Positions 258 to 63,684 are shown, numbered from the whole stretch's first letter. The stretch: 63,737 nt of DNA, filler included, from Reclinomonas americana ATCC 50394 (GCA_048213135.1; 10 parts of 8 records of this genome joined end to end with filler, not necessarily neighbours in it); one strand, 5' to 3'. Numbers and translations: made by a program. Notes: generated from the letters alone by a model not told the origin.

Positions 258-3200
258 ATGCGTTGGCTCCTCTCCATCGTGTGCCTCGTGCTCCTCGGCG
301 CAGTCCTCTTGGCTGGTGAGTTTGTGTGCGTGTGTGCGTGATGACGCGATGTCACTCTTTCCCTCTCCTCTCTTGTGTGTGTTTGTTTTGTGCGCGTGTC
401 TCTTGTGTGCACCTCCTGTGTGTGCGTCTCCTTGTGTGTGCGTGTGCGTGCGCGTGTGTGCGTGTGCGCGGCAGTGGATTCGTGTGTTCGAGTGACAGTG
501 CCTCTCTGCTCGCCTGCGATCTGTCCAACTCACCCATTCTCCACGACGCAGACGCCCAGACCACCACTTTTGCCCCTGGCAGCTCTAATGCGCCGGAGCA
601 GTTCCAGATCATCAAGGCTGTGGGCGAGGATGGTGCGTGCATTGCACAATCTCTTTCTCTCTCTCTTTTGCATGCATTCCTCACGTGCACTCTTCCTCTC
701 TCTCCCTCTTCCTCTCCGCACAGACCTCGACACCTCCGCCCCGAGCGGCTCTCAGTCGGCCATCTGGGTCAACTGGACGACCCCCATCAACCAGGGCAAC
801 TCGTCGCCTTCCGAGTTTGGTGTCGACGTGGCCAGCACTGGTGGCACCACCAAGTACACTGTTGCGTCTTCTCGCTCCCCCTTTCCCTCTCTCTCTCCTC
901 GACTCACCCTCTCCTCTCTCCTCTCTGCAGTGCTCCGGTGTCAACGCCATTGTGGCCAACAACGGCCCTGCCACTGGCGGCGCCGGCTGCTACGGCATGA
1001 TTCTGCGTTACTTTGACCAGAACATCCAGGAGGGTGTCCAGTACACCATCGCTGTTGCGTCTTTTTTTCTCCTCCCCTCCTTCCCTCCACTACCCGCTCA
1101 TCTCATCTCTTCTCCCACCAATCACAGGCGTACTCGGTCAACGCGTACGGTGAGGGCGTCCGCACCTCGTCGCAGGTCGTGACGGTGCCGCTCGGCGGCA
1201 CCCCGCGCACGCCGACGAACCTGACCATCAGCTACACGGCTGCCACCTCGTTCGTGCTGTCGTTCTCGCCGCCGATCAAGCTCGGTCAGACGGGCTCTGG
1301 CATGACGGGCAACACCAACAACTACAACCAGCTGCAGACTCCGTTCTTCCAGGTGCAGATCCGCAGCTCGACTGGCAGCTCGTTGACGGCGTGGACTCCG
1401 GTGACCTTCTACACTGAGACCACCTCGGGCACTGGCGGCGCAAATGCGGCCGTTATCCCGTTCAACTCAAGCCCGTTCTCCCTGCAGACGTGCGTGGTGT
1501 CGGGCACTGGTGCCGATGCCGCGACCAGCATTCTGCTGCCGAGCACTGGCTACGTGGTGCGCGCTCGCGCTGTGGGCCAGTGGGGCTTTGGCCCGTGGAG
1601 CTCTGTTGCGTCTTTTTGTCTTCTGATGTTGCATTGTGTGAAACAGCTTGCTCACATCACATTTCTCTCTCTCTTCCTCCCGCGCAGACCGCCACGGTGA
1701 CCACCCAGGACGGCAAGCAGTCTCCGGACAAGACCGCTACTTTTGGTCAGACTCAACCGACCTCAGCTACCGCCACCGCCAACGTTGCCCCTGCCTCTGA
1801 CGGCGGTCTGATCTCGTGGACTTCACCGCAGCGAATTGGCGGCAGTGTCATCAGCAGCTTCAAGGTGGAGGCTGCGGCGTCGGCCAACGGCGTCACTGCG
1901 CTGTACAACGCCTTTGGCGCCACGTTCACTGGCACGCCTGTCGTCGACAAGACCTTTGGCCGTGTGTCTGGCGGTCACGTTTTGATCTCGAAGCTGACGA
2001 CGACCAACATCAGCGCCTACGTCATCCGCGTGACGGCCGTCAACGACTCTGGTGACGGCACGCTCGCGCTCGACACTGCCTCTCAGCTGACACTCACATT
2101 GTCTGCTGCCGGTACCAACCCGACGCTGCCGGTTCCGGTTCTGGTGGCTTGCTGGACGGTGACTACCGCCAACACGGTGATTCAATGCCTGGCGAATACG
2201 GCTGCTGCCACTGTCATTGGCACTGGTGGCTTCAGCGCCTCCAGCAACCCTTACACGATTGGCAACCCGAACACCGTCACTGGCTTTGCAAGCGGCACTC
2301 TGACGATGGGCGCCAGCGACCTCACTGGCACGATGACCTTCTCGGCCACCACTGCCGGCACCGTGACGCTTGTGGCGACGAATCTTGGCCCTGGCACCAC
2401 CGCCGTCTCGCAAAACGTTCAAATGCAGTCCTCACTCGGTGTGACTGCGCCCACCAACGCCATCTGGTACAATCGCTCTGGCGCCGCCGTCGCCACTGCT
2501 GCCGCCTTTGTCACTCTCGGCAACAACTTTGTGGTGATGTACGCTGGCTCGCCGCAAAACCGTGGTGTGGTCGCGACTGCCGCCAGCACCTCTGCGCCGC
2601 TTGGTGGTGTGAACGCCATTACCTTTGTCGCTGGTACCAATGCGGCCAACAATGGTGCGGCTCCCACCGACTTCCAGTACCTCGACGGCAACACTGCCGC
2701 GTCTGCCGTGTCGGCTACCAAGATCCTTGTCGCCATTCGCGGTGCGGCTGCTCCTGGTGCCACTACCACCTACGGCATCAGCTACACGCTGGTCAGCGGC
2801 GGCACCGCTGCGCCGCTCTATTGCTGCACGGGCAACGCCACTGCGTCCAACGCTGTTGCTGGCGGTATTGTGGCTGTCGCTACAGGCACTGCCGGCGTTG
2901 GCTACCGCAAGGTTTTCGCGAACTGCGCCACAACCAAGCAGACAGGCGCTGGCGACAATGCTCTCACGCTCACGGTGACTGTCGCTGCTGACGGAACCAT
3001 TGCCGCAGTTGCCCTCGGTAACGCTGCTGGCTCTGGTTATGCGAACAACGATACTGTCAAGATTGCCGCCACCCCCAATTGCACGAGCGGTAGCGCCACC
3101 TTCCCGGCGGGCAATGGCGCGCTGCTGTTCACCACACAAGGTGCCGGTGCAGTCACTTCCGTTGCTGTGACCACTGCGGGTTCTGGATACGGCGTGTCCT

Positions 3201-6200
3201 CCAACTACACTGGTGCTGCCATCACCCAGGGCGGTGGAGCCACTCTGAACATCTCGATCAGCGCTGCCGGCGCCCTTACCGTTACTGGCGTGAACGCCCA
3301 GGGCACGGGCTACGCTGCTGCTGGAGCTGTCACCCTCGCCGCTGCGGCCACATTGTACGATGCCACTGGCGGCACTCCGTTTGCCGGCACCGTTGCCAGC
3401 GTCAACACCCTCGCCACTCCCTCCACCGCCGGCACAAACGCTGGTGCCCTCCCCAACCCCGACTCCGTCACCATCGTCGACATTACCGACACGGCGATGA
3501 CCTTCGTCATCACCATGAAGAATGCCGGTGCGACATACACCGCCAACGCGGCCAACTCCAACGCCGCAACTGTCGCCTCCTACTCCTTCACTGCCACCGG
3601 CTCTGCCTTTGTGCGCGGTATCGCTGTCCCCACGGCGAACCTCACCACCACGGCCAACAGCAACCAGCCCGCCACGGGTCACCTCGACGGCTGGCAGGTC
3701 ACTCTCTCTGGCCTCCTCCCCGGCCGCCTGTACAACCCGCTGGTGAATATCTCCGTCGTGAACAACGCCAGCTCCAATTCTCTGACTGCCGCTGTCGCGC
3801 CGTCTGGTATCCCTTTCTGGACCGCCACCAGTTGCGCTTCTTTACACCCTCTCACCCTCTCCGTTCCTCTCGCCATTGGTTAGCTCACACTTATTCTCCC
3901 GAAACAGCCCGCGCTCCGATCGCCACCGCCGGCACCAACTCCATTTACTACGTCAGCAGCACCTCTGCCACCGTCTGGCTGCAGCTGCCGACTAACCTCG
4001 TCGGCCAGGGCGGTCTCTCGTCGCAGACCCCCGGCAACAACGCTCTCAACTTCAAGGACATCAACACCTCGCTGACTGTGCAGCAGACCAGCAACTTCGT
4101 CACAGGCACCACTGCCTACCGCGCGTTCGTGGTCGGCGACAACACTGGTCCCACCACTGTGACCGCCACTGATGCGAATTCAGCTGGCACGTGGCGCGGC
4201 TACACCGTTGGCACTCTGACGAACAACGGCGCCACTGGCGGCTATTCGTACACCATCAACGTGTGGACTGAGTCGCAGGTGAACCGCTCGGCCACGGCCT
4301 GGAGCGGCACCCTGACCACCAGCGCAACGCCGGCTACTGCAGTCGTGTCGCCGACGTCGCCGACGATGTCGTCCACCGTGCGCTACGTCACGTCGAATTC
4401 GGCGTGGGTGGAGTGGGAGGCTCCGGCGGGCAATGTGGGCGTGATTGGCGCTGCCTCGTGGTACGTCAAGTCGGTCTGCGGCTCAACCACCGCGGTTGCT
4501 ACCTCGGCAAGCAATTTGGGTGATTTGGGCATCACCGACACCAACACCGCGAGTCTGACACGCAATCGCGTGCTCACCAAGGTCACTGGCCTGTCTGGCA
4601 CCAGCTGCACTGTGGCTGCGGCCTACTACAACGGCACCGGTCCCGCGGACAGCACCCTGAACTACGCCACAGCCGTGACGGTGACTCTGGCATCGGGTGC
4701 GCCAGCCACGCCGACTGGCTACACTGTGTCTCCGTACACTGGCTCTGTGGACCAGGTCACTTCGACGTCGTTTGTCGTCGCCTTCAACTTCCCGGCCACC
4801 TTTGGCTCGGGCGACACTACCGCCGCGCCGTCCGTCGCCTACACGGTGACAAGCGCCAGCGCTGACCAGACCGCCATATTTAACAACAACAACGCCAGCA
4901 CCCTCACCACCTCGTTCAACGGCCTGTTCCCGTACAACTCGGGCTTCTACGCGCAGATCACCGGCTTCACTGTGAGCGGCACCGCCAACAACTTTGTGGC
5001 TGCCACGCAGTACACGGTCAAGGCCAAGATCTCAGTCAACAACAACGCCACTGCGTCGGCGGCCGGTTCCATCCAGGGCACCACCGACAACAACGGCTCC
5101 GTGCCGGCTGCGCCCACCAACGTGGCGTACTCGCGCCTGTTCTCGACTGGCGTGCGCCTCAACTTCTCGACTCCGATCAGCGTCGGCGGCTCCAACACCG
5201 CCACCTCGAACGCCACGCAGGGCAACCTGTCGACGCCCAACCCGAACGTCACCAACTACCGTGTGGTGTACTCGACCACCAGCGCCTCGTCGGTGACTGC
5301 TGCCACTGCGGGCACCGCCACCAGCATTGACACCAGCTCCATCCCGGCCACCAACGGCACCGGCACTGCGTCGTGGAATGCCAACCTGTCGACCTACTAC
5401 ATTGACGTGACTGGCCTGCCGGCTGGCACCTCGGTCAACCTGCAGATCTGCGCCAGCAACCAGTTCTCGATTGCCTTCCCGACGTCGCCCTTCAACCCGG
5501 CTGGCACCACCGCCAACCCGGTGACGTGCGCGTTCAGCACTGCCATCAACTTCACCACTCCGGCTGCCTCTGGTGTCGTGCCGAACCCGCCGACCAACCT
5601 GGTGGTGACGCAGTACGGCCTCACCAACATCTTCCTGCAGTGGACGATTCCGCAGAACTTTGGCACCAACGCCGTGACCGGCTTCACCGTTTTCCGCGGC
5701 CAGGGCAGCGCGACCCCGGTGTCTGTGGCCACTGTCACCCTGCCGACTGGCTGGGCGCTGACCGCCGCTTACACTGCTGACACGACGCTGACGGCCAACA
5801 CGTCGTACACGTACCAGGTGTACGCCACTGCCACGTCGACCAACTCGGCCACGGCTGCTGGTCCGATCACTCAGACCACTCACAACACCAGTTGCGTGAA
5901 AGGGAGAAAGGAAAGGGGAAAGAAAGAGGACAGGAGAGGTGATAGGGGGAGAGAAACAGGGAACCATTCTGCTTTTTGAATATCTAGCGTCTCATCCACT
6001 TCCTCACCACAGATGATGCTCCGATCGCCCCGGCGGCCCCGACGCTCGCTGGCGGTGTGGCCAACTCGCAGGGCAGCAACTCGAGCGCCGGCTGCGTTGC
6101 TGTGGCTGGTACCCTCGGTGTGGGCTTCTCTGGCAACTGCTACCAGGACACCATCACCAGCATCTCGTGGGCGTCGCCGATTGGCATTGGTGGCACCTCG

Positions 6201-8696
6201 ATCAACGGCTACGTTGTGACGCAGAACACCAGCAACTGCAACCGCACGTACACGTGGACGACGCTGACCACCAACTTCAACTTCCCGACCATTCCGGGCA
6301 AGTCGTACACCTACGCCGTGCAGGCCACCAACACCCGCTCGGACTCTGGTGTGACCTCGACGCAGAACGGTGCTCAGTCGGGCACTCTGCCGCAGATTGC
6401 CAACTCGATTGTGCGCCCGTACCCGCTGCCGGCTCTGACCACTGGCGGCTCGGCTGGCTCGACTGGCTCCGGCTACGCCACCTTCACGCTGTCGACCCCG
6501 TCGACTGTGCAGGGCACGCAGTACCCGCTGACCACCTCGGACGGCTTCGCGAACTTTGTCGGCGTGCAGGTGCTGGTGCAGAACCTGACCAACGTCACCT
6601 CGACCACTTTCGTGCCGGACTCGTTTGTGAACCAGATCATTGGCTCGCTCGGCTCGACCACCTCGACGCTGCTGGTGAACGGCCTCAACTCGAACACCAA
6701 GTACCGCATCGGCGTGGCGTCGTACAACGGCTACCAGGCTGCCTGGTCTGCGTCGGCCATCACCATCACCACGGCCACGTCGCCGCAGCGCCCGAGCGGC
6801 ATCTTGTCGCTGTCTTCGAACCTTCTGCTCAAGCGTTCGACCTCGATCTGGCTCAGCTGGGGACAGCCGCAGGAGACTGGCGGCCAGGGCTTCGTGAACC
6901 AGTGGCAGGTGTCGTGGCGCGCGGCTACGGCCAGCACGCTGACCCAGAACACCACCTCGGTGCAGCAGGCTGTGATCCGCGGCCTCACTGACGCCACCAA
7001 CTACTTCATCGATGTGCGCGGCATCAACGGCATTGGCACGTCGACCACTCAGGCCACCTTCGGTGACGGTATCATCGGCAACGGCCTCAACAACAACGTG
7101 CTGACGGGCCAGGTGCCGAACGACCAGACCAACTTTGCGGTGACCAGCAACACTGGCACGGCGATTGCGTTCTCGTGGACGACTGCCACTGGCGCGTCGA
7201 CTGCCATCTCTGCGCAGACTCTGACTGGTGCGTCGGCCACGACCACAAGCCCGAGTGTGGCGTTGGGTGCCACCGACACCACGGCGTCTGTGACGGTGGT
7301 GAACGGCAACTTCTACCGCTTCTTCCTGAACGCGACCAACTCGATTGGCACGGGCAACAGCTCGCTGTCGATCTACATCCAGGCGTCGCCGGTGACCACG
7401 ACTGGCATTGTGCCGGCTGCTGGCACCCCGTCGCTTGACTTCTACGCCGCCAACGAGTACCGCGTGTCGTGGACTGCTGTGGGCTCGGGCACGACTGCTG
7501 CCGCCACCTACTACCTGGTGTTCTGGCAGTGGACGACCCGCTTCCTGGCGTCGACTGGCAACCCGGCCGCCGCTGACGGCCTGGGCATGAACACTGCCAC
7601 GCTTGGCAGCGGCACCAACCCGGCCATTGCCGGCACTTGCGTGCAGCTGTTCCAGACCATCAAGCCGTCGTCGCGCTACCGCATGGTGCTCNNNNNNNNN
7701 NNNNNNNNNNNNNNNNNNNNNNNNNNNNNNNNNNNNNNNNNNNNNNNNNNNNNNNNNNNNNNNNNNNNNNNNNNNNNNNNNNNNNNNNNNNNNNNNNNNN
7801 NNNNNNNNNNNNNNNNNNNNNNNNNNNNNNNNNNNNNNNNNNNNNNNNNNNNNNNNNNNNNNNNNNNNNNNNNNNNNNNNNNNNNNNNNNNNNNNNNNNN
7901 NNNNNNNNNNNNNNNNNNNNNNNNNNNNNNNNNNNNNNNNNNNNNNNNNNNNNNNNNNNNNNNNNNNNNNNNNNNNNNNNNNNNNNNNNNNNNNNNNNNN
8001 NNNNNNNNNNNNNNNNNNNNNNNNNNNNNNNNNNNNNNNNNNNNNNNNNNNNNNNNNNNNNNNNNNNNNNNNNNNNNNNNNNNNNNNNNNNNNNNNNNNN
8101 NNNNNNNNNNNNNNNNNNTTGGCAGCGGCACCAACCCGGCCATTGCCGGCACTTGCGTGCAGCTGTTCCAGACCATCAAGCCGTCGTCGCGCTACCGCAT
8201 GGTGCTCATCGGTGGCAACACCGTCGGCCTCGGCCAGGGCTCGCAGGGCACCGCCAACAACAACATTGGCACGCCGACTCAGGGCGCTCTGACCCAGACG
8301 GGCCAGGCTGCCGCTCCGGCCGCCCCGACTCAGGGCACCAACACCAACACCTCGATCACCGTCAACTTCTCGACCCCGATCTACACTGGTCTCGGCCTGA
8401 TCACCAGCTACCAGATCCAGACGTTCCCGGAGAACGGCGGCAACGTCATCTTCGGCTACAAGAACGCCACCGACTCGACTTCGTCGTCGCGCGCCAACTA
8501 CACGTTCACTCAGGCGAACCTGCAGCCGGGCACGCCGTACGTGGTGAATGTGCGCGCCGTCAACTCGTTCGGCCAGTCGATCCCGTCGGCCAACCTGCGT
8601 GTGTCGACGACCGGTGGTGCCGGTTTCGCCGCGACCTCGTCGCTGTGGACTGTGGTGCTGATGGCCATTGCCGCGCTGATGGCATTCGCCTTCTAA
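258..8696 (+). CDS. Giant secreted, probably GPI-anchored or C-terminally membrane-anchored, fibronectin type III repeat surface glycoprotein (~2390 aa, 8 exons)
   Basis: Exons 258-315, 552-632, 724-860, 931-1053, 1128-1604, 1688-3830, 3908-5890 and 6013-8696 join in frame through GT-AG introns. It begins with a signal peptide (MRWLLSIVCLVLLGAVLLA) and has many FN3 signatures (e.g. W..P..GG....Y; LQPGTPYVVNVRAVNSFG; LNSNTKYRIGVASYNG). It is T/S/A/G/N-rich with many N-x-S/T sites and ends in a hydrophobic tail (LWTVVLMAIAALMAFAF*). The length assumes the 7692-8118 gap closes by overlap. Confidence 0.9.
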
Positions 8697-8963
8697 ACGG
8701 AGGGCTGGTGATGGTGCTTCTGTGTTGTTTCCGTCAAAAGTGCTTTTTCCGTCCTAGTGGGTTTTCTCTTTCTGGTTTCTCTCAACTGTTATTTGGGGTC
8801 GTCTTGTTGTTGAGGGAGTGAGAGAGGGAGAGATAGTCTTGGGACGAGGCGACAAGATTCTGCGCTCTTTTATTTTGTGGTCCGTGAGCGTGTGAAGTTG
8901 TTGTTTGGGGGCGATTAGTGATGGAAATGAAATGATTGGAGCATGTCGGTGAATCGCCAAGTA

Positions 8964-9012
<49 letters not shown>

Positions 9013-10232: not shown

Positions 10233-10772
10233 TCACGCACTCCCGCTCCAACCAACCGCAAATCTCCACAACCTCACCCGTGCATCCTCCTCGATAAAGC
10301 ACCGCAACACTATCAGCGGCAGCGGTTCGCTCGCACCCCGCCTGTACATTGCCGTTTCACGCAACCATCGCTGCGACTGCACCGCCACGCACACCTCCCG
10401 CTGGTAGCACCAAGCGACATTCCACGGACCTGTGGCGTGACTGATGAGGAGGTATTCAACTCGCCACCGGCTGTCGTGCACGAAAACACACCTGACTGCC
10501 ACACCGAGGACGTGCGACTCTCGGTGGCGCACACAATGCGGCCGTCGCCACACAAGGCCAACGAGGTCACCGGCGTCGTGTGGCCAGTGAAGACGGTGAT
10601 GCACTCGTGGTGTGCGAGGTACCACACGCGGGTGGTGCAGTCTGCGGGGAGGAGCGGGGAACACAAAGGGAGGGAGCACAAATGCATGACGAAAAAGAAG
10701 CCGGATGTGCAGACAGACAGAGAGACAGACAGAGGGAAAAGGAGAGAGAGGCAGTCACAGAGGGAGAGAGGC

Positions 10773-10804
<32 letters not shown>

Positions 10805-10987: not shown

Positions 10988-11053
<66 letters not shown>

Positions 11054-12864: not shown

Positions 12865-12898
<34 letters not shown>

Positions 12899-13682: not shown

Positions 13683-15564
13683 ATGACAAGCATCACAGAC
13701 AACACATCAGAGGCTCTCCGCTCAACGCGGTGCTTTGTGGCCAAACTCGCGGGTGAGATCGCTCACTATCTCCTCAAACACGCGTGCGCTCACTGCACGC
13801 GTGTGTGTGTGCAGGCAAGACCGATGAACACTCACTGCGAAAGCACATGGAACGTTGCGTCTCTCTCTCACTCTCTCCCTCACTCTCTTCCCTTTCTCAT
13901 CTTGCATGCATGCATTCATGACAGAGACCGGAACAGTTGTTCGAGTATCTCTCAAACGCGACGAGCAAGGCAACTCTTTGCGTTACGCGTGCGTCACTGA
14001 CTCACTCGCTCGCTCGCTCACTGTCTGCCTCTGTCACTCTGTCTTTTTTGCGCTGACCTCGCGCGCAGAATCGTCAAGTTCACGACGCCGGACGAAGCCG
14101 ACGCGGCGGTGCGCGAGCTGCACGGAAGCATGCTCGATGGGCGGTGCATTGTGGTGGCCGAGGTACTTCTTGCGCAGAACGAGGCCTCGCCTTCTGCTGC
14201 ATAGCTTTCTCCTTTTCCTTCTGCTTTTCTTCCGCTTCGCCTTATCATTTCGCATTTCCTTCTCCTTTCCTTCAGCTTCGCCTTCTGCCTCCTTTCTGTT
14301 TCGCCTTCTTCTTCGTCTTGTGCTTCGTCTTGTGCTTTCCTCTCTCTCTCTCTTTACCGTGCTTTTCCGTGCTTTCCCGTGCATTCTCGTGCATTCTCGT
14401 GGTTTCTCTTGCTTTCTCTTGCTTCCTCTTGCTTCTTCTGTACTTCCTCTTACTTCCTCTTACTTCCTCTTACTTCCCCTTCTCCCTTCCCTCTTCCCCT
14501 TCCCCTTCCCCTTCCCCTTCCCCTTCTCCTTNNNNNNNNNNNNNNNNNNNNNNNNNNNNNNNNNNNNNNNNNNNNTTAATTAATTAANNNNNNNNNNNNN
14601 NNNNNNNNNNNNNNNNNNNNNNNNNNNNNNNCCCTTTCCCTTCCCCTTCCCCTTTCTCCCCTTCTCCTTCCCTCCTCACCCTTCCCCTTTCTCCCCTTCT
14701 CCCTCCCCTCCTCACCCATTCCCCTTGTGCTCCCAGGACAAGCACAAACCGGTCAAGCCCAATCCCCCGCGAGTGCGCCGGGCGCAACAACCGCCGGCCG
14801 AGAGTGCGGCAGCAGCCAATGTCGAGCAGCAACCGCGACTGCCCGACTATACAATCGCCGACACGCACGCGCTGCTGGTCACGCGCAGGCCGGAAGAGCT
14901 GGACGAATGGGTGCGCCGCGAAGTGCTCGACAAGGGAGTGCGCGCGGTGGGCATGGACACGGAGAGCAAGCCCTCGTGGCGCGTCGGCGAGCGCAATCAG
15001 CTGGCCGTGCTGCAGCTGGCCACCGAGTCGTCGGCGTGTGTCGCACAGGTCATTGACATGTCGGTGCTGCCGCCGGCCACTGTCGAGTTGCTCGCCTCGC
15101 CCGCCATTCTCAAGCTCGTCTTCTCCAACACCGACTCCTCGGAGCTCTCGGATCGCTTTGGCGCGCAGCTGAATGGTGCGTTTGACGTGCAGCGGGAGGA
15201 GGGCGAGGAGCACGGTACACGGTGAGTCCTTTCTTGTATTCAGACCCTCCGGAGGGGGAATAGAGCTGACTGTGGTGTCGACGGGCAGCGCGAGAGCGGC
15301 GCTCAAGAAGCTGGTGCCGCAGTATCTCGGACTGACGCTCTTCAAGATCAAGAGCGTGCAGGTATCGAACTGGGGCCGCTGGCCGCTGAGTGCCGCGCAG
15401 GTTTGGATGCCCCCTGTTTTATGCATATCTTTCTCTTTCTCTGCTAACATGGGTGCTGGCAGGCCTCGTATGCAGCGTGCGACGCCGCCGTGCTGCTTCC
15501 TCTGGCGGCGGCCGCGTGCCCCACCAGACTCACCGACGCGCTGCAGGCGCTTCCCAGCATCTAA
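13683..15564 (+). CDS. RRM domain + DEDDy 3'-5' exonuclease (WRN-exo/EXD-like) protein
   Basis: The RRM exons in 13683-14162 give RNP2 CFVAKL and RNP1 LRYAIVKF. After the spacer gap, exons from 14737 give ExoI VGMDTE.KP, LAVLQLAT, SNWGRWPLS and ExoIII YAACDA. Phases are compatible (0/0) across the gap. Confidence 0.75.
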
Positions 15565-23979: not shown

Positions 23980-24023
<44 letters not shown>

Positions 24024-26655: not shown

Positions 26656-28901
<2,246 letters not shown>

Positions 28902-50974: not shown

Positions 50975-52594
50975 CTTTGCACGCGGTGTCGGCGACCGCG
51001 ATGGCGGCTCGGGATCAGGGTCAGCCTCCGGCAGCTTGACTTTGATCTTCTTCGCCTTGGCCTTTTCTGGCGGTGGTGTGGGCGGCGACGGCGGTGTGGG
51101 TGGTCTTGAGTGTTGCGCGGGCACGTTGAGACCGGCCAGCTGCGCCACGATCAAGATGAGTTGTGGCGACGACCAAAGGTGGCGAGAGAGCACAAACCTC
51201 GTTCTTGAGTTGCGCGATGCGCGACTCCAGCTCAAACACCTCGCGCTGCTTGTCCTGCCGCTCCTGCTCCATGCGTTGGAGCAGTGCATCGGAGCGCGTG
51301 AGTTGGTCGCTGCAGTCGCCGCTGAGCAAGAGAGGAAATGGCGGTGAGTGGAGGCGGCGCACACGCTATACACTCTGACAGCGACGCACACAAACTGCTT
51401 GAGGAGTTTTTCGTACGCCTTCTTGGTTCGATCCTGTGTGCGCGTGTGGAGAGTGAGCCACGCGAAAAACCATCCATAAGCAAGCAAAAAGACTCACCAG
51501 CTCGCTCTTGATAGACTCGCATTCGGGGAACATGCGCTTCAGTTCGCCCTGAATGCGGTCGCGCTCCTTGGTGAGCGTGGAGATTCTGAGTTGCAGCCCA
51601 CGGAACTCGATCTGCAGCGGCTCTAGGTCGCTGGCGGTGATGCTGGCCAGTTTCATCGCATTCATCTGGTGGTCACAGTCAGTGAGAGTGTGTCACTGGC
51701 TCTTCACACAAATGCACAAGAGCGGCAAGACTCCGCACGACAAAAAGTAGAGAGTGAGAGAAAGAGGCAGAGACAGAAAAGGGAAATGAGATGGAAGAGA
51801 GAGGGGGGGGGGGGGACAGAGTAAGTCAAAAAAAAGGCGTTGGAGCGACGCAAACCTGATCGCGTAGTTGTCGATTCTCATATCTCCACTCCTGCTCCCG
51901 CCGCTTCCACATGTCGATCAGCGTCGCCTCGTCCGCCACCTTCTTGTTGAATTTGGCCTGCCACAGCTCGACCTGCTGCTTCAGTGCCACGACTTGATCG
52001 ACCAGCTTGAAGACGAGCGGAAAGTCTTGCGGAGTGTGCTCACTGAGATGGCTCGGCAGCGCCTCGACCACATGCGACGACGAGGCCAGCTCCAGAATCT
52101 GTCCGCGCTTGTCGACGTGGGTGGAGAGGAAGGAGCCGAGGCCGCTGAGTGCCTCGTCGAGCTCCTCCTGTGCCTTTTTCGCCCCGCCGTCGTCGTCCTC
52201 GTCGTCCTCGTCGGTGGTCAGCGGCCGCTCGGACAGGCGCAGTGGGTAGCGCGGCTTGACGGCCGGACGAGGTGGGCTGGAGCGCTGCTCGGCGTCTTTC
52301 AGAAATCTCTCCAGTTCGCGTTGGGAGCTCTGTGGGGGGAGGGCAGGGGGTCACATAGGCGAAAGGGGGAGGGGGAGGAGGAGGAGGAGGAGTAGGAGGA
52401 GGGAAAGATTACCTTGCGAACTTCCTGTTGTTGTACGAGCTCCTCTTTCAGGCGGTAGACGGCCTGAATGGCCAGGTTGGCGTCCTCCTCGTGGGTCTCC
52501 TACAAGGGGGAAGGAGAATTAAGAAAAGGGAGAGTAAAAAAGGGGAAGAAAATGAGAACAGTGGGGACATAAGTGCCAAAGCGGAAACTGAGGG

Positions 52595-52631
<37 letters not shown>

Positions 52632-53376
52632 AGTGGGTACTGTCGGAGAATAACGAACTGCGAGGCCTGGCAGGGTGAGATCATCTCTCTTTCTTGTTTC
52701 TTCCCTCTCCTTCCCCTCCAACGCAACAATTTCCACCAAATCCTCCACCGACACCACCGCCAGCTTCCTCAACAACTCGCACACCTCACTCAGGTGCGAG
52801 TCAATGGCCAGCTCGCGATGCAGCGGCGAGCAGAACTGCACGAGATTGCACTCGTGACACGGAATATCAAAGGCATGCTCGTGCGGAATGATTTCGTAGC
52901 ACAGCTCGCACACGCCCTTCATCTCGTACTCGGTGAGTGCGCGCTCAATCAGCTGGCCGCGCTGATCGCTGCGCAGCTGCGAGTACTTGGTGACACCGGC
53001 TTTGAGGAAGTCGATGAGGTTGGCGAGGTGCTCCGAGGCCTGAGAGAAGGGGGAGGAGAAGGGGGGGAAGGGGGGAGGGGAGAGGGGGAGGGGAGGAAGG
53101 AAGGAAGGGAGTGAGTGGGGGAGTGGGGGAGTGAGTGAGTGAGTGAGTGAGTGAGTGAGTGAGTGAGTGAGTGAGTGAGTGAGTGAGTGAGTGACCGAGT
53201 GAGTGAGTGGGCGAGTGAGTTAGTGAGTGATTGAGTGAGTGAGTGAGTGAGTGAAGGAGTGAAGAGAGTGATCACCAGTGTAGTGATCATATCAGCGATC
53301 CAGTGATTAATGCATGAAGGCGACGACTTATCCACCATCTCACCCTTCTCTCTGTCTCTCACACACACTCACACTC

Positions 53377-53437
<61 letters not shown>

Positions 53438-54369: not shown

Positions 54370-57300
54370 CTAAGCAATGACCCTTGTAAACTGTCCACAA
54401 ACCTCGCGCACTGAGCGCAGCGCATCGAGAACCTCCTGTGCCGTCGGTCGATCGCGACGCATACTCATGCATCGCATGCCAATGGCAAACATGGCTTCGG
54501 CAATACGCGGTGCCCACTGCACGCCGTCGGCACTGTCCACCAGCTCCATGACGCGCAACGAACCCGGCGACTCGTCCCACNNNNNNNNNNNNNNNNNNNN
54601 NNNNNNNNNNNNNNNNNNNNNNNNNNNNNNNNNNNNNNNNNNNNNNNNNNNNNNNNNNNNNNNNNNNNNNNNNNNNNNNNNNNNNNNNNNNNNNNNNNNN
54701 NNNNNNNNNNNNNNNNNNNNNNNNNNNNNNNNNNNNNNNNNNNNNNNNNNNNNNNNNNNNNNNNNNNNNNNNNNNNNNNNNNNNNNNNNNNNNNNNNNNN
54801 NNNNNNNNNNNNNNNNNNNNNNNNNNNNNNNNNNNNNNNNNNNNNNNNNNNNNNNNNNNNNNNNNNNNNNNNNNNNNNNNNNNNNNNNNNNNNNNNNNNN
54901 NNNNNNNNNNNNNNNNNNNNNNNNNNNNNNNNNNNNNNNNNNNNNNNNNNNNNNNNNNNNNNNNNNNNNNNNNNNNNNNNNNNNNNNNNNNNNNNNNNNN
55001 NNNNNNNNNNNNNNNNNNNNNNNNNNNNNNNNNNNNNNNNNNNNNNNNNNNNNNNNNNNNNNNNNNNNNNNNNNNNNNNNNNNNNNNNNNNNNNNNNNNN
55101 NNNNNNNNNNACCACGGAAGTGTCAACCAGGTGGCTTGCTCTCGTAAGAGAGGAAGCCTACAGAAGCAAGGAACTGAAGGAGAGGACACTACAGTTATGG
55201 ATTGTCCTCGACTTCGTGTTCCGCAGCTCAACACTTCCATCATGGACCATTCGCTCACCGTAACCACGGGCTGGCTTGTGACCAACTGCACCAGCAGCAT
55301 ACCCATGCTGTACACGTCGTGCTTTGGCAGCGGGCGCCGGGCACGGAGGGCCAGCGGGTCCAAGTAGTCGAGCGTGCCAGCGGCGACGGTTGACTGTCGC
55401 GATTGGGAGACGAGAGAGTGAGAGGCGTTGAAATCAAAGGCAGAAGGTGATGCGCAACAAACCTTACCACCCGCAATCGATCGGGCTATGCCAAAATCAC
55501 CGAGACATGGCTCAAGGTGTTGGTCGAGAAGGACATTAGCGGGCTTGATGTCGCGGTGCACAACCTCGTTCTGCAAAGGTTGGTGGCGAGTGAGACAAGG
55601 TAAGAAATGAAGGGGGAGAAAAAGAGAGCGGGAAGGAACGGAAATGACCTCGGCCAGGCGAACAACGCAAACCAACCTTGTGTAAGAACGCCACGGCCTC
55701 GGCCAGTCCGAGAGCAATCTGCACGCGCTGCACAACAGAGAGTGGTACAGGACCGGTACGAAGAAGCAAGAGATCTTCTAGGTTGGGAACTCTGCGTGTC
55801 CACATGAGACGTCGGCACTGTAAAACAGAGAGGGAGACAGAACGCACTGCAAGGCCTTGTACACGAGACAGCGTGCCTTGTTGTCGCCCACAGCATAGCC
55901 AACAAGGGGGATTATGCGACGGCCACGCAGACGACCGAGCGTGGAGACCTGGGAAGTCGACAGTGTGAATGAAGCGTTTTGTTCTATAATGAACGGACAT
56001 CACAATGGGTATTGAAACAAAGAATTGCGGTGGCATACCTCACTCTCAAACGACTCCATTGTCCACGGTGCATCGGGGTCGAGCACCTTGATGGCCACGT
56101 GCATCTCGCGAAGAGTGGTAATATACACAGCACCCTGGCCACCCTCACCAATCTTTAGGCGAGGTGCAAACGAGTCGGTGGCTTCGATGATCTCGGGCCA
56201 CTCGAAGCGTTGCACTGAGGTGTCCACTGCGAATGGCGTGACACAATGAATGTGTGACAGGAAGAAAAAAATGAAATACAGGCCGACGACGACAAGGCAG
56301 GTGCAGACCTTGAGCAAGGAGGATTTCCTGTTGCAGCTGGGAGACGAGGCGGTCTCTCTCTTCCAGTTCCCGCTGCAAGACGGACAGCTGAGCAACGAGA
56401 CCGTCCTTGTCATGTACCGCGGCTGTCAACTCAGAGGCGATTCGATCTCGCTCGACCAGCAGGCGTGCGACTTGCTGCTGACTCTCCGCATGATCTCGTT
56501 GACAATCGGTGACGAAATCTTCAAGCTCTCGACGCTGTCGATTCCACTCTCGCCGCTGCTCGTCTCGCTCATGCTCTGAGGCAGCAAGATCGCGCTGAAG
56601 TTGAGCGATTTGGGCGTCCTTTTCGGCGAGCTGTGTGGCATCGACAATGTCCTGCGTCCGCGCGATGGGTTGCAGGCGCACGTAAGAGACAAAGCGATGT
56701 AGAGGCGAGCCGGCGCAGAATCAAACCTGGTTTGCTGCTGTGTATGTCGAGCAAGGCGACAAAGAACGGAACACACATGGACGAGTGTGAGCGGGAAGCA
56801 ACCGCCACAACAAAACGAATACAAGAGCGCACCGAGACTTCCAGGCGGCGGAGAAGGAGGATGTAGCTGTTGTAGCTGTTGTTGAAGTGCAGAATGCTCT
56901 CGTTCGAGGCGCTTGAGCAGCTTGACCACGCGCACCTGTTTATGGTTGCGTGCCACCTCGACCGCCGTCTTGTCTTCCCAGTCGACCATGGGAATGAGGT
57001 CGGGATGGCGAGAGGCGAGCAGTTGCACGATGCCTTCGTAGCCTTTTGCAGCGGCTAAATGCAGCGCAGTGCACAGATCCTCGTCGACTGCCCTCACCAC
57101 CTCCGGCGGACATCGTCGCCCGTCGGCGAGTAACCATTCCACCACCTGCAAATACCCGCCGGCGGCAGCCACCATTAGCGGCGTCCGACGAAGACAGTCG
57201 ACCACGGAAACGAGGTCGGGATAGCGGCTGACGAGAAGATGCACAAAGGCTTCGTGGCCGTTAGAGGCAGCCCAATGCAGCACATTCTGAAAGCCGGCCA

Positions 57301-57561: not shown

Positions 57562-57672
57562 NNNNNNNNNNNNNNNNNNNNNNNNNNNNNNNNNNNNNNN
57601 NNNNNTTAATTAATTAANNNNNNNNNNNNNNNNNNNNNNNNNNNNNNNNNNNNNNNNNNNNAGGTAGTAGAC

Positions 57673-57710
<38 letters not shown>

Positions 57711-57789
57711 TACATACATACATACACACTCTTTCTCTCTCCAACTCATACCTCTCCCCTGCATGCCTGTGTTTCACTCTTTCTGTGCT

Positions 57790-58440
57790 TCCGACATTCG
57801 TGTGTGTGTTTCTGCCCTGGCCGATGATCGTCACGTGGTGATGTCTTCCGTTCGTGAGGCGCAGCTGGTGCTGCATCTGTCCAAGCGTTTGGCCGAGTGG
57901 ACTGGCATTGCCGACAACCCGCAGAAGTCATTGGTGTTGGCTCTGGTCCAATGCAGGCGCAGAACTTTGTAGCGGAGGAGTTCGATCCCGAGCTGCTGAT
58001 GGCTGGCACTGCGTTGCGATCCATGTCATCTGTCACTGAGTGCGATCGTTGGCTTGGCTACCGGTACCCGTTCTACTCACCGACTCGTACAAGTGAGGCG
58101 AGGAAGCAAGTGACGAAGATGCTGGAGAAGCAGCTCCACTCCGATCAAGGCCATCAAGCAGTCGTCGTTGTTGCCGCTCCAGAAGGTGGATGCCGTTCGC
58201 CGCTTCGTCCTCACCAAGGCCACCTTTGTCATTTCGGCCGTGGAGCTCCAGTCGGACGCGCTCGGCAGATTCGACCGCAAGATCCGCGACAGCATCCGAC
58301 TCTGCCTTGGCCTCGACAACGACTCCGGCACCCCCTTCCTTTTCCTCTACACTCCGCTGTCGAAAGGTGGTCTCGGCCTGTACTCTGTGGTGGAGCGAGC
58401 GGCCTCTCTGTTGATCTACTCTGCGCGTGGTGAAGCTGTT
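57790..58440 (+). mobile_element. Decayed non-LTR retrotransposon, RT C-terminal/thumb fragment (R2/RLE-like)
   Basis: ALADD..EAQLVL..AEWTGIADNPQKS resembles the RT xADD..G...N..K region. After frameshifts it continues PLQKVDAVRRFV..FDRKIRDSIRLCLGL..FLYTPLSKGGLGL, the typical post-RT P..GGLG motif. Confidence 0.7.
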
Positions 58441-60599
58441 GACACACCGCCGACTGCTGACTCGTCGTGTGGCGGAGCACATGCTCCACTGCTCGGTGAA
58501 GGCGGCCGGTGGTCGTGTTGACGACTTCTCGCCGTTGCCGACTGCTGGTTTGGTGGCCAAGTACCGGCAGACGAACGAGGTCAAATGCCAGCAGCTGCCA
58601 GTTGCCACGCCACAGCGGTATTTCTCTGTGTGTTTGTCTCCTGTTGCTCCTCCAGCTGGTGCTGCTGCGGTTGCTCCTGGTGCAGGTACTCGGTTTCAAG
58701 TGGCCGCTGATCCGAGTGCTCCTCGCCGCGCTGTTCGTTCCAATCTGAAGGGTGGTGTTGCTCTCGGGCACGCTCTGAGGGTGTCAGTGTGGAGGTGCAT
58801 CCGGCTGCTGGTGCTGCTGACCAGGCTTGGCTGTGATGCTGTGTTTCCCTTTGCCGTGTTCGCGTGCATTACTCAGTGAAACCTCATTCTCTGTTTATCT
58901 CACTGGTCATGGAGCTGAGCCCGATCCCGCTTAACCCGGAAGCGTATCTTGAGGGGCTCTCCGTCCGCCCCAGGCAACTTGAGCAACAGACTGAATGCAG
59001 CTGGCTGTGGCTGCAGGTCTTGCGGCCAGCAAACGACCGTTGTCACGAACGAAAACCGGCCCCCGCCGACGGACATTGTGTTCCCTGACCGCACGTGCGG
59101 AAACGGGGATATCGAATGCTCGGCCGCAGAGGAGTGGAGTACAGCCTTGGAAGTTGATGCGGCTGCTCCTGCTGCTGCACTGGAAGAGTCGGTGCCCGTG
59201 GTCAACGGCAAGCTTGCGATTGTTGACGATGGTTGCCCGCACCACTGCAAGGAAAGTCATCAGTGAGAGGAAGACTGCAGAGTCTTGAGCCGACCCAGTT
59301 GCGTCACTCGCCTCCACACTCGCAACGAGGCACTTGCCTCGCTGATAGGTCCGCATATTTGCATCAAGTCGCGGAAGTAGCTCGTAGCCGACCAAGCCAG
59401 CGCCGAGAAGTTGTGGACCCGGAAGAGTAATAATGCCGTCGCGATCGCGTTGAAGAACCTGGTGTCTCAGTTGGCTGCCGAATCGGATGATGTCGAGACC
59501 GCGGAGGGCATAGATCAGACACACGTCCACCTTATGTGAAACACGTGCAGCTTGAGCGGGTGCATCAAGCGGCCAGCGGTTTAGTTCTGCTGCGGCAGAC
59601 TGGACGCTGTTGAATTTCGCCAAGATTGTGCCTGTAACTCCCCGGCCGTGTGGTCAGCTGCTGCACAGCACTTGGGTGAACACAACAGAGCGCAGCACGT
59701 ACTTGCATCATCAGACGGCAGGTAGCGAGCGATACTGTGAAGAACGGTCCACGTTGTCGTCGAGTCGCTTTCCACGGCCACGGCCGTGCTTGCGCCAGCG
59801 CCAGCACCTTCGCTGCGACCACCGGCAAGAGCAGAGAGCATTTCATCAGCATCGCCGATTGACAACCCAAATGCCTGCCACAGAGATGCCGCTGCACATG
59901 GTCCAGGTATCGTAGTCGCTGAGTACAAAGAGGAGGAAGGAGGCAACTGCAAGTCGTGTTGCGCACCTTCTACAGTTTCCTCGGCGTACTGGCGAACTAG
60001 GGAAACAATGTCCACCTTCCGCCGCGACTGAAGGAAATGGTGCAGGCACAACAGGAGCGCAGAGTGCAGCTGCTGCTGCATTCTAGCCCAGAGTGTCCAG
60101 TCCTCGTCTCCTCCTTGCGACTGGTAAAGCCGACGGTGAATGAACTGGATCGACTCGACAGCTCCCTGGCGAGGAAAGCGCACACGTTAGTTTGGCTCGC
60201 TGCGCGATTCCAATTCAGTGCAAGAGAAGCGTGAGTATAGAACAGTGACAAACCCGCATGTCAGGGTTGGCAAGCAACCAGTACCGCTCATTCGGTATCG
60301 GTACATTGGTCTCGTCCGGTACACTCCTCGTCGGCATGAAGGACGCTGCAAGCAAGGCCTGGCAGCAGGCACAAAGATCCATCGAATGCGCGGCTTCATG
60401 GTCACTGAAGAGTTGCCGAAGGAGACCAGCGCGAGGAATCACTCGGCGCTGACTTGATAAATACCGGGCAAACCTGCCGATTGAGAACAATATCACCATC
60501 ACTGCTGAGATCACTGCATGGAATGTTACGGGCGCAGCAAACCTCCACGAAAGATCTGCAGCGTGCGTGCCGCTGAAGAATTCGGCGTCGCAACCCACA

Positions 60600-61726
60600 T
60601 CACGAAGATGAACGATGAACGACGCAGTGAGATCTTCCTGCAGGCGACGAACAATGCGACGAGTGACCCCAAAGAGCAGCCGGTGCAGGCTCGCACTGAA
60701 TGCCGCCGACAAGCTGGCACTGGATGAACCCTCGCTGTGCTCCAGAGCCGACGCCCTGGACCTCGTCACGCGTGCGTACAGTCAGTGAACAAAGTGGAAC
60801 GGTGGCGTTGCGTGTGTCCCCCACGCACCGGACTGCGGAGGCGGTGAATCTCGATCGCGGGGTGCACAGGTCGTACGCTGGATCTTCAGCGTCGGCGCCT
60901 CTGCCTAGCAGGTCGTCGTGATCACTCTCGCTGGCGTGAACACTGGTGCCGGCTGCAGCTTCCAACCACGAATGCCTTTCGAAATCTGGTCTTTCCATCT
61001 CGAATGTGATTTCGAAACTGCGCGTCGGTGCCGGACCCGTCACGTATTCTGGAAGGATGCCACTATCTGGGTACAGAACCAGGATGAAGAGTTCCAAGCC
61101 ACCAGGCAGGAGCGCCGGCTCGATCGAGGCACGGAATCGCCCGGCCTTCTGCACCTTGTCGGTGCGGAAAAAGCCGAAAGCAGAAAATGACGAGGAGTCA
61201 AACATGCAGTTGCCGCCGACGCGAATGCGCACGTGCTCATTCTCCTCCTCTTGTTCCCGCACCACCTCCTCGTCGACGCCTCCACCGCCAGCGCCTGTCG
61301 GCTCGTTTGCGCGCGGCCGCAAGATGATGTCCATAAAAATGAGGTTTCTGTCGTAATCCGGGGCTGCGCGGACTGCCACGCGTGTGGTGCTCTGGGGAGA
61401 GATGCTCGTCAGCAGCAGTGTTGAAACGAGGACATGTGTGGGCGAACAGCAAAGACGCAGGGAGAGCGGAAGTTCCTTATGTAAATGTCGGAAACCGAGT
61501 TTTTGGCGCGCAGCACCCAGAGAATGACAGTGGGCGCGTGTGCGTACACGTGTGCCACACGCACCATGAACGCGTCTCTGTGCGAAAGTTGCCGCAGTCG
61601 CATGCTCGCCGTGCTGCGCGAGCGGGCCTTGGTGTACAGCTCCTTCACACCACCGGCAACGTACTCCCAGGTGACCACATCTGGGTAATTGTCAAAGTAA
61701 ACATGCGCGCCGCAACAGCTTCCCAT
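60600..61726 (-). pseudogene. Unknown intronless coding-like segment interrupted by a frameshift
   Basis: ORF MGSCCGAHVYFDNYPD.. stops at 61409 while another frame continues to 60600 (259 aa in the track). No family recognised. Confidence 0.3.
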
Positions 61727-62451
61727 GGCGCGCGCGCTGAGGCCTGATATTACAAAAAAACACGAGCGAACCAACGAAATGGCCGTCCGACAGCAAATTT
61801 GTTGAACACCACTCGCTCACTCGCTCAAGGCCGCGCACACGATGCGTACCATCCCGTGCTGGTCCGAGGAGCCCTTTGTTGCGTACCTGTAACCACGCAC
61901 ACACACAAATCATAACAAACTGTCGGTTGTTTGTGTGCGTGTGTGTCATGGCGCGAAAATGGCGTTTGTCAAACTCACACACTCTCTCTCTCTCTCACTC
62001 TCTCTTTCTTCAGCTCGAGCGTGGCGAGACAAAGAAGCTGCCTATCAACGATGTGGCTTTCAAACCCGGTGAGCAGACAGAGAGAAAGAGAGCAAACAGA
62101 CACAGTGATTGTCATCTCTCTCTCTCTGTACCGGCCAAGGCGATGTACGGTACTGACAGTAAGTCGCTCGTAGCCGACCAAGCCAGCGCGAGAAGTTGTG
62201 GACCGAGAGTAATAATGCCGTACGACGNNNNNNNNNNNNNNNNNNNNNNNNNNNNNNNNNNNNNNNNNNNNTTAATTAATTAANNNNNNNNNNNNNNNNN
62301 NNNNNNNNNNNNNNNNNNNNNNNNNNNCTTTCCCCTTTCTCCCCCTTTCTCCCCCTTTCTCCCCCCTTTCTCCCCCCTTCCTCCCCCTTTCTCCCCCCTT
62401 CGTCCTCCCCCTTGTCTCCCCCTCACTTCCCCCCTCCCCTCGCCCTTCACA

Positions 62452-63684
62452 GTCGAGCACGCCAAATTCGTTCAGCGACACGGCCGCTTCTGGGACCGCG
62501 CTGAGGTGTACTACGCCTACGACATGGTCTACAAGTTCACCGAGGAGCCGTTCACCGAGATTGAGGACCGGCATTGCTGGCAGATTGCGCGCTACCTCGC
62601 CTCGAAGTTGAATGTGGCCGGCCAGGACATTCCGTTCGGCGTGTCCAAAGTGTTGCGTCTCTCCTTCCCTTCTCTCTCTTGCTTGCTTGGACCGACTCTC
62701 ACTTACTCTGCGCAGCAAAATCCTGTACACTCTTGGCCGATTGTCGGCCGATCCCAAGCTCAACATGCTTCGCATGGCGCGCTTTGCCTTTGACAAGATT
62801 CAGCAGCACCGCATTCCGCGCGAGTTGCAAGATCAGGTCGATTTGACCTCCATCAAGATCAGCAGCCGGCCGTTTGTCGACGATGAGGTGGGGGTATTCC
62901 CAGGGTCTTTTCTTTTTGTTTTCTTCCCCTCTCACCTGCGTGCACGTGCGTGCACAGAATTACATTCCCATGTGCTACCGCTGCTCAAGTCCCAACGCCA
63001 CCATCGGCAACAAGGGCGACGTGTGCTACACATGTCTGCACCCGTTCATCCGCTCCTTCCTCTCGTTCGATTTGGTTCGTGTCGCACAGCGACGAGCTTC
63101 ACAATGCAAAGCTAACATCACGTGTGTGTGCGCGCACAGCTGCCTCTGGTGGAGTTCAAACCGGAGCCAAGCATCCCGGTGGACGAGGCCACTGCGCTTA
63201 TCAAGGCCGACCCACCAAGGAGGAGAAAGCGGCGAGCACAGGGCGACGATGCCGACAAGTGGAAGGAGTCGACTGACGGAGGTGCGTATGGTTGCACACG
63301 TCCACTGCGTGTCAACAACATGGGTGCTGAATTGTGTCTTCTCTTTACCGTGTCGGTGCAGCCGCCAACGTGCTGTCTCTCGACGGCGGCGGTCCATCGG
63401 GCGTGCCGGGTGGCGGCGACGAGGAGGAGGAGGAAGAGGAGGATCCATTTGAGCAGCACCTGGTCAACATTGAGGTGAGGAGCTACCGCACACAGACTTG
63501 GGAGTGCGCACTCCCACCCTCCTCTCACCTCCTCGCCCATTCGTTGTAGTTTGGCACCACCTACCGGCCCATCACCCTCGATCGCAAGTCGCTGCAAATG
63601 CTGCGCAAGGAGGACATCTTTATTCGCAAGTTCACCTCGCCCGATATTCCGCCGCAGTACTTCCGTAATATGATGCCGGATGTG
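62452..63684 (+). CDS. IFT122: Intraflagellar transport protein 122 (IFT-A), C-terminal exons; partial at both ends
   Basis: FTEEPF..IARYL..PFGVSKVKILYTLG..ARFAFDKI..RPFVDDE..PMCYRCSSPN..CYTCLHPFIRSFLSFDLLPLVEF..EDPF..QYFRNMMPDV matches the recalled IFT122 C-terminus. Confidence 0.9.

Follow-up and report, generated by a model that had tools for sequence, protein, structure and literature searches.

We analysed a 63,737-base (~64 kb) stretch of DNA from Reclinomonas americana ATCC 50394 (GCA_048213135.1), referred to below as the window, for a second kind of predicted 5' splice site (donor), in which the intron begins GTT(G/A/T)CG. The window is eukaryotic and GC-rich (~56%). Genes were identified by a Pfam scan of 210 open reading frames (ORFs), with the RRM and PLAC8-like genes found by eye, and include a giant FN3-rich gene, an ARL2BP/BART gene, an anoctamin gene and the C-terminal part of IFT122 (Table 1). 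We call GTT(G/A/T)CG donors S and ordinary donors N; in donor motifs a slash marks the cut and the letter before it is the last exonic base. A first-pass annotation of this DNA had listed 18 introns with donors of this kind, had described the motif as the local GT(G/T)CGT consensus plus one additional T, and had found it only after exon ends other than G. The sequence read-out bore out the motif at 18/18 sites, each on its own strand, as well as its relation to the local consensus and the non-G last exonic base (T 8, A 5, C 5, G 0). The four normal-register exceptions that it had named, in the RRM, esterase, PLAC8-like and kinase genes, were also as described (Table 1).

Offset donors, their junctions and the last exonic base

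The curated set comprises 59 introns in 11 gene models, of which 20 (34%) have S donors and 39 have N donors. S donors occur in nine of the 11 models and are mixed with N donors in eight, so that within the window the class is abundant and rule-like, as had been claimed. All 59 introns start with GT and end with AG, which was built in, only GT-AG pairs having been considered, with GC donors added in the anoctamin test described below. The heptamer GTTGCGT has 29 matches on both strands, compared to 7.94 ± 2.73 expected from 100 dinucleotide shuffles, none of which reached 29; the normal-register heptamer GGTGCGT was observed 19 times, with 8.9 expected. Fifteen of the 29 GTTGCGT sites are curated donors and the site at 45585 is a sixteenth donor. 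The other 13 are donors in no gene model; two sites lie inside curated introns, and among the clear non-donors are 11779, an acceptor with its exon start, and 12483, within a WD40 exon. Three matches at 59298, 60807 and 61878, all on the plus strand, lie where neither gene finders nor Pfam gave a convincing gene; an unmodelled gene may be present around them.

The donors were supported by donor-blind parsing, homology and frame logic. Two donor-blind parsers were used, a hidden Markov model (HMM) followed by a generalised HMM (GHMM) in which introns had to be at least 40 nt long. They required only GT at the donor and scored coding periodicity, intron composition, frame and stops, with the acceptor also scored in the GHMM. 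GTT(G/A/T)CG donors were chosen in 10 of 40 (HMM) and 10 of 34 (GHMM) well-flanked introns, by parsers of which the first had been seeded with five IFT122 introns, one of them S, and the second had intron-content and acceptor models trained on a list already including 12 S introns. Such sites make up 91 of the 7385 GT sites in the window (1.2%), which gives a binomial probability of 8e-12 for the donor-blind choice. The GHMM, with its 40-nt minimum, overlooks micro-exons and genes interrupted by gaps. A self-training HMM with a donor position weight matrix over-predicted (136 introns, many of 1-30 nt) and served for candidates only.

The anoctamin gene, which mixes four S and six N introns, allowed its junctions to be compared with a protein family. 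Protein-homologue searches with anoctamin, IFT122 and esterase exons returned no match, and a metagenome scan with the anoctamin exon gave no close relative, only five distant loci with 35-49% identity. The last large exon of the anoctamin gene, run by HMMER against 1.84 billion representatives, gave 150 relatives, the named homologues including oomycetes, insects, an ichthyosporean and a glaucophyte. A profile HMM was built from 52 full-length relatives. The 10-exon spliced model contains no stop, scores 481.6 bits against this profile, and aligns to it gap-free through the junctions at 41514, 41620, 41709, 42293 and 42518. To compare junctions, all in-frame, stop-free GT/GC-AG pairs within 36 nt of each boundary were scored (65 variants). 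The modelled donor was the best of 20 options at 41514, of two at 41709 and of 10 at 42518; at 40837, with eight in-frame options, it was the best GT donor, with two GC-donor variants within 1 bit. The micro-exons 41687-41708 (22 nt) and 42265-42292 (28 nt), both on the plus strand, encode a conserved, gap-free stretch of the profile, and the 22-nt micro-exon is followed by the S-type donor GTTACGA. Two S introns, 27093-27155 (minus strand) and 41514-41582 (plus strand), are 63 and 69 nt long, multiples of three without an in-frame stop, and their retention would therefore keep the frame; keeping the 69-nt intron at 41514 costs 20 bits against the profile.

Domain spacing supports the S junctions of two further genes. 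Exon 1 of the ARL2BP gene corresponds to positions 16-50 of Pfam BART and exon 3 aligns from about position 80, and the 29-residue exon 2 exactly fills positions 51-79. The RRM model has 42 residues before exon 4, its last exon, and Pfam RRM_1 aligns exon 4 from position 43; that the first residue of the model sits at profile position 1 is our reading from the RRM consensus. The five S introns of the FN3 gene and the S intron of IFT122 join long ORFs in different frames, with 2-12 in-frame GT-AG pairs at each, and none of the other in-frame donors is consensus-like. The FN3 gene model (1-8696, plus strand) encodes ~2,600 residues with a signal peptide, several FN3 domains and a hydrophobic C-terminus; the protein is very rich in Thr, Ala, Ser, Gly and Asn, and five of the seven introns are S-type.

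These lines of evidence bear on the claim that all 18 listed donors are needed for in-frame joining. It stood firmly for 13 of them: four anoctamin junctions (profile), two in ARL2BP and one in the RRM gene (Pfam spacing), and six by frame logic. The support is weaker at 45382 and 45585, and 31061, 44465 and 46422 are ambiguous (Table 1). A cut after the G (xG/UUGCGU) was considered and rejected: the mRNA would gain a base, short of a simultaneous move of the acceptor to a non-AG site, and only cutting ahead of the G keeps the models in frame.

Table 1. Gene models, S donors and N donors without G at −1 in the window (coordinates of the whole stretch).
Feature	Position	Strand	Basis and remarks
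FN3-rich giant gene	~1-8700	+	Pfam
WD40 genes	10316-12899 and 22553-24139	both −	Pfam
Exonuclease gene and C78 peptidase gene			Pfam
RRM gene	13683-14162	+	By eye; last exon confirmed with Pfam RRM_1
ARL2BP/BART gene	26828-27389	−	Pfam
Pectinacetylesterase-like gene	~30112-33710	−	Pfam
Anoctamin gene	40523-43329	+	Pfam
PLAC8-like gene	44.2-46.7 kb	+	By eye
Kinase and ankyrin genes	54-57.6 kb	−	Pfam
IFT122, C-terminal part	62284-63449	+	Pfam
S intron, FN3	861..930	+	t/GTTGCGT...CAG; joins long ORFs; 2 in-frame GT-AG options (±36 nt), the other non-consensus; donor-blind pick
S intron, FN3	1054..1127	+	t/GTTGCGT; 4 in-frame options; donor-blind pick
S intron, FN3	1605..1687	+	t/GTTGCGT; 12 in-frame options, sole alternative donor t/GTGGGCC; donor-blind pick
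S intron, FN3	3831..3907	+	a/GTTGCGC; 4 in-frame options; donor-blind pick
S intron, FN3	5891..6012	+	a/GTTGCGT; 3 in-frame options; donor-blind pick
S intron, RRM	13854..13924	+	c/GTTGCGT; by eye and RRM_1 spacing
S intron, ARL2BP	27093..27155	−	c/GTTGCGT; BART spacing and donor-blind pick
S intron, ARL2BP	26946..27006	−	a/GTTGCGT; BART spacing and donor-blind pick
S candidate, pectinacetylesterase-like	30994..31061	−	t/GTTACGT; ambiguous: in-frame donor 31043 (t/GTCTCTG), same acceptor
S intron, anoctamin	40837..40904	+	c/GTTGCGT; profile HMM
S intron, anoctamin	41514..41582	+	t/GTTGCGT; 69 nt, in frame, no stop; profile HMM
S intron, anoctamin	41709..42264	+	a/GTTACGA; after 22-nt micro-exon; top of 2 by 25 bits
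S intron, anoctamin	42518..42584	+	c/GTTGCGT; profile HMM and donor-blind pick
S candidate, PLAC8-like	44465..45355	+	t/GTTGCGT; by eye; ambiguous: in-frame donor 44480 (t/GTTTGG), 15 nt downstream
S intron, PLAC8-like	45382..45445	+	c/GTTTCGT; only in-frame GT-AG pair (±36 nt); by eye; weaker, ORF logic only
S donor, PLAC8-like	45585..46349	+	t/GTTGCGT; crosses spacer 45978-46077; frame continuous with exon 46350, by eye; outside the curated 59
S candidate, PLAC8-like	46422..46494	+	a/GTTGCGA; ambiguous: in-frame donor 46434 (a/GTGTGTG), 12 nt downstream
S intron, additional to the first-pass annotation	47831..47888	−	a/GTTGCGT; by eye; 6 in-frame options; nearer acceptors give a stop or a 31-nt intron
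S intron, additional to the first-pass annotation	48154..48217	−	t/GTTGCGT; 4 in-frame options
S intron, coiled-coil gene, additional to the first-pass annotation	52500..52727	−	t/GTTGCGT; HMM/GHMM; 25 in-frame options; ORF logic and motif only
S intron, IFT122	62652..62715	+	t/GTTGCGT; frame change required; Pfam TPR_IFT122 stops at exon end; 3 in-frame options, others non-consensus
N donor without G at −1, RRM	13989..14068	+	c/GTGCGT
N donor without G at −1, esterase	31496..31568	−	t/GTTCGT
N donor without G at −1, PLAC8-like	46527..46593	+	a/GTGCGT
N donor without G at −1, additional to the first-pass annotation	48744..49312	−	a/GTGCGT
N donor without G at −1, kinase	55728..55847	−	a/GTGCGT; boundary uncertain: GHMM favoured 55843 (c/GTTCTG)

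The association between donor class and the last exonic base was confirmed in the curated set, with G at −1 in 0 of 20 S donors and in 33 of 39 N donors (Fisher, p = 8e-11). It held in the best-supported tier (0/13 S vs 10/12 N, p = 2e-5) and in the donor-blind parse (0/10 S vs 14/24 N, p = 0.0017). Measured against exon composition (G = 0.20 at −6 to −2), the absence of G from 20 sites is only modestly unlikely (0.8^20 = 0.012), and the contrast is mostly one against the strong preference of N donors for G at −1.

The intron side of the donor follows the same division. A CG(T) block is present in all 26 donors without G at −1 and in 7 of the 33 with it (p = 1e-10). In six of the 26, all GT(G/T)CGT, the block lies at +4 to +6, and in the other 20, the S donors, it lies one base further out. 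S donors are rigid, 15 of the 20 having the identical heptamer GTTGCGT, whereas N donors are varied (18 hexamers in 39). The shifted counterpart of G/GTGAGT, x/GTTGAGT, seems to be absent from the set. Beyond the GCGT block both classes continue with C and then T; C is present at +8 in 11 of 20 S donors and at +7 in 6 of 13 N donors. In one further donor, 51855 (minus strand, g/GTTTGCGTC), the displacement of the GCGT block is two bases and −1 is G; as a single case it may be due to chance.

The 3' halves of S and N introns are indistinguishable. A CTNAY motif was present in 18/20 S and 31/39 N introns between 8 and 45 nt from the 3' end, at a median distance of 18 and 20 nt, respectively; the pyrimidine fraction is 0.72 (S) and 0.71 (N), the acceptor is CAG in 19/20 and 38/39, and the median length is 69.5 and 73 nt. 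Both classes are therefore most likely removed by one major spliceosome, given that they sit in shared genes and have the branch-like motif, pyrimidine tract and CAG acceptor in common. The consensus of U12-type donors is /RTATCCTT. S donors resemble these in their long, rigid motif and in having no exon-side consensus, and differ from them in the motif itself, in the absence of the U12-type branch site TCCTTRAY (0/20 S and 0/39 N introns), and in a tract and CTNAY motif like those of N introns. On the donor motif and the branch pattern, the assignment of S introns to the minor spliceosome was rejected.

Assembly pieces and other sequence features

The window consists of ten contigs joined by spacers in which 44 N flank, on either side, the linker TTAATTAATTAA of 12 bases with stops in all six frames; the spacers lie at 13046-13145, 14532-14631, 24096-24195, 26471-26570, 33017-33116, 40191-40290, 45978-46077, 57562-57661 and 62228-62327; six more N runs (20-530 nt) are ordinary gaps. 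The esterase gene on the minus strand and the PLAC8-like gene each span spacers. Because at least two genes thus continue across them, the contig pieces are neighbours in a scaffold. Upstream exons of IFT122 were sought at 57662-62227 (55 ORFs against Pfam), and no IFT122 match was found in that interval.

CT/GA dinucleotide runs are extremely frequent, TCTCTCT occurring 791 times compared to ~6 expected from base composition. The runs are mostly intronic and on the sense strand (for example, 41830-42260 and 49900-50950), and the introns are ~69% pyrimidine. In the WD40 region at 11260-10600 (minus strand), an exon start with its acceptor is present in three or four degenerate tandem copies spaced by ~200 nt, near 11240, 11095, 10893 and 10642, and the open exon continues only from the last copy. 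A short exon-like piece is also duplicated there (11779-11757 and 11640-11618).

Possible readers of the displaced block

Judged from the sequence, the predicted S introns form a genuine, abundant class with offset, intron-anchored donors. We propose that they are genuine GT-AG introns processed by the ordinary (major) spliceosome, in a genome that would use two familiar kinds of 5' splice site: an exon-anchored kind, in which −1 is G and the intron side is loose, and an intron-anchored kind, without G at −1. The intron-anchored kind would require the C-G-U block, which lies one nucleotide further from the cut in 20 of the 26 cases and would thereby give the near-invariant GUUGCGU. The U-G-C-G-U block would most likely be base-paired one nucleotide out of the register set by the GU, its reader being U1 at first contact, U6 after the hand-over, or both. 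The chemistry would then cut at the only available GU, one base upstream of the cut equivalent to that of G/GUGCGU. We consider it moderately probable that the standard small nuclear RNAs (snRNAs) read the block in this displaced register. A shifted register is favoured because S donors lack G at −1, a position that would no longer face C9 of U1, and because the C-then-T continuation is shared by the two classes. The proposal that intronic G at +1 stands in for exonic G at −1, made in the first-pass annotation, fared less evenly: the absence of G at −1 fits such a shift, whereas the composition at S −1 is unlike that at N −2.

Several points weigh against a displaced register, or against its generality. 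The data cover the 63,737-base window, and a genome-wide reach lies beyond them. The junctions are predicted from gene models built on sequence, frame and profile homology, and the curated set is our own selection from the parsers and from reading by eye. Omitted from it were parser introns that cross gaps, belong to low-complexity proteins or lie on strands with weak scores; among these, 18603 c/GTGCCT, 25317 c/GTGTCG, 28873 c/GTCACG and 36875 a/GTTGAG have a non-G base at −1 and no CGT block, and if real they are exceptions to the rule drawn from 26 of 26 donors. The composition of S −1 (T 9, A 6, C 5, G 0) differs from that of N −2 (A 21, T 8, G 6, C 4; chi-square p = 0.025), by which a simple equation of the two positions was rejected. 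An anticorrelation between G at −1 and the strength of the intron side is, moreover, well established for 5' splice sites in general and alone provides no evidence for a register shift.

The pairing energies also count on this side. Pairing was calculated by duplexfold with nearest-neighbour energies, using the canonical U1 5' end as printed in PMC4856993 and a plain RNA model (no pseudouridines, cap or proteins). Canonical U1 forms no stable duplex with an S site in any register (+0.5 kcal/mol), compared to −1.1 for x/GUGCGU, −5.8 for a human-type shifted model site and −6.3 kcal/mol for G/GUGCGU. The mark of human-type shifted sites, U1 pairing that is stabler at +1 than in the canonical register, was thus not found for the S site. 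Because the energy favours x/GUGCGU, pairing alone fails to explain why S donors (20) outnumber x/GUKCGU donors (6). Opposite the invariant C of the block, canonical U1 has a pseudouridine and the ACAGA box of U6 has an A; because canonical U1 and U6 give it no partner, neither standard RNA explains this C. A search of the window with Rfam for snRNA genes gave none at gathering scores, and at E ≤ 1 only low-complexity microRNA-like or untranslated-region matches.

The same observations are the strength of the alternative that survives best, namely that UGCGU is recognised directly, through complementarity to a dedicated or altered reader, in place of a shifted standard RNA. Such a reader could be an snRNA (a changed U1 5' end, a U1 paralogue, or U6 next to ACAGA) or a LUC7-like or U1C-like protein. 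It would fit the far greater rigidity of the S motif, the C-G that is invariant in all donors without G at −1 and whose C has no canonical partner, and the failure of canonical U1 to form a stable duplex with S. LUC7 paralogues, too, are known to differ in which class of 5' splice site they favour (PMC11842720). For a hypothetical U1 in which G and C replace the two pseudouridines, the calculated energies are −6.2 kcal/mol for S and −14.2 kcal/mol for G/GUGCGU, but its pairing with x/GUGCGU (−9.0) would be better than that with S. The U1 5' end, furthermore, is nearly invariant across eukaryotes (PMC11842720) and is strictly kept even in a tunicate in which most introns break the GT-AG rule (PMC13326754), and the AG/GTGCGT donors of Micromonas were published, as far as the available part of the paper goes, without invoking a variant snRNA (PMC3879977). 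We therefore regard an altered reader of any kind as unlikely, though a serious candidate. Its narrower form, in which an snRNA changed in this lineage (U1, a second U1, or U6 at ACAGA) carries G/C in place of two pseudouridines or an A, is somewhat more doubtful again; in that case Watson-Crick pairing would account for the reading of U-G-C-G-U, at most intron-anchored sites one nucleotide out of register.

A bulged register would apply the same logic of one extra U after the GU. In this arrangement, G+1 and U+2 would pair with C8 and A7 of U1, U+3 would be bulged, and GCGU would pair as in GUGCGU. The human +2/+3 bulge register has been experimentally validated, with 54-68 sites (PMC4856993). 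However, the −1 base would still face C9 of U1 and G would be expected there, as it is not in the S donors (0/20, vs 33/39 in N), and duplexfold with canonical U1 yields no such structure. On these grounds a bulged U appears quite improbable for the S donors.

A gene-model artefact, with the true donors elsewhere and GTTGCGT enriched for another reason, we hold to be very improbable. It draws on the predicted nature of the junctions, on in-frame alternative donors at three or four of the listed sites, and on the 13 of 29 GTTGCGT sites, such as 11779 and 12483, that are donors in no model. It is opposed by the profile-level support for junctions in the anoctamin, ARL2BP and RRM genes and by the donor-blind choice of S sites, and each S site is followed, 58-122 nt on or further, by the 3' signals (branch-like motif, pyrimidine tract, CAG). 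Descent of the S introns from a recently spread, introner-like family that shares its 5' end is extremely improbable: the first 7-9 bases are near-identical in many copies (GTTGCGTCT), but an all-against-all blastn of the 20 introns gave only four shared 12-nt CT-rich matches, and the introns range from 58 to 891 nt and lie in nine different genes, adjoining ordinary introns.

If a third of the introns of this organism do use one fixed offset motif, it would represent a natural system in which the choice of the cut is uncoupled from the helix register at scale, with a bearing on how U1 passes the 5' splice site to U5 and U6. The C-G-U found in every donor without G at −1, which canonical U1 and U6 do not explain, leads to a concrete prediction on the snRNAs or the LUC7/U1C-type factors of this lineage. 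If the snRNA should prove to be changed, this would point to co-evolution of a core snRNA with its splice sites, and to a spliceosome that tolerates two cut-to-helix spacings. In practical terms, training a gene finder on one donor model alone would, in a genome of this kind, put about one donor in three in the wrong place.

Comparison with known 5' splice sites

A literature search for GTTGCG(T) or GUUGCG(U) gave no splicing paper by title or abstract, and one for GTGCGT or GTTCGT in splicing gave no offset class by title or abstract; the supplements of comparative papers may hold donor logos. Roca and Krainer reportedly described, in 2009, human atypical 5' splice sites that are read by U1 in a register shifted by +1. 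In human sites with GUU plus consensus, U1 reads in a shifted or a bulged register, and all non-canonical registers combined account for at most 2.1% of sites (PMC4856993). Offset 5' splice sites have accordingly been treated as rare exceptions, about 2% of human sites at most (PMC4856993). The S donors resemble the human shifted sites in the succession of GU, an extra U and then the block, and in a cut at the GU despite pairing that would be one off. They differ in their frequency (20/59 introns), in a block of GCGU rather than AAGU, which gives no stable duplex with canonical U1, and in being tied to the absence of G at −1. The human bulge +2/+3 register, reportedly described by Roca et al. 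in 2012 and presented in PMC4856993, likewise has an extra U after GU but predicts that G at −1 is retained, which is the case in 0/20 S donors.

The donors of the window also resemble those of Mamiellophyceae green algae, the G/GTGCGT-type consensus of Micromonas being like the ordinary class here; a GTTGCGT class is not mentioned in the part of that report available to us (PMC3879977). The left- and right-handed sites defined in work on LUC7 likewise form two classes according to the side of /GU that carries the consensus, although no offset of the intron-side consensus appears in the portion of that work on hand (PMC11842720). Two classes have also been distinguished as AG//GUNNN, read by U5 loop 1, and NN//GURAG, read by the U6 ACAGA box, which rarely co-occur (PMC11732430). 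As in that work, G at −1 here is anticorrelated with strength on the intron side, and the classes share genes; unlike there, the intron-anchored donors here are GUUGCGU or GUKCGU, GURAG occurs in 0/26 donors without G at −1, and the G-U that would pair with U6 lies one base further out in 20/26. The split into exon-anchored and intron-anchored sites is thus known biology, and what is new in the S donors is the motif, with CGU and not RAG, and its offset by one base.

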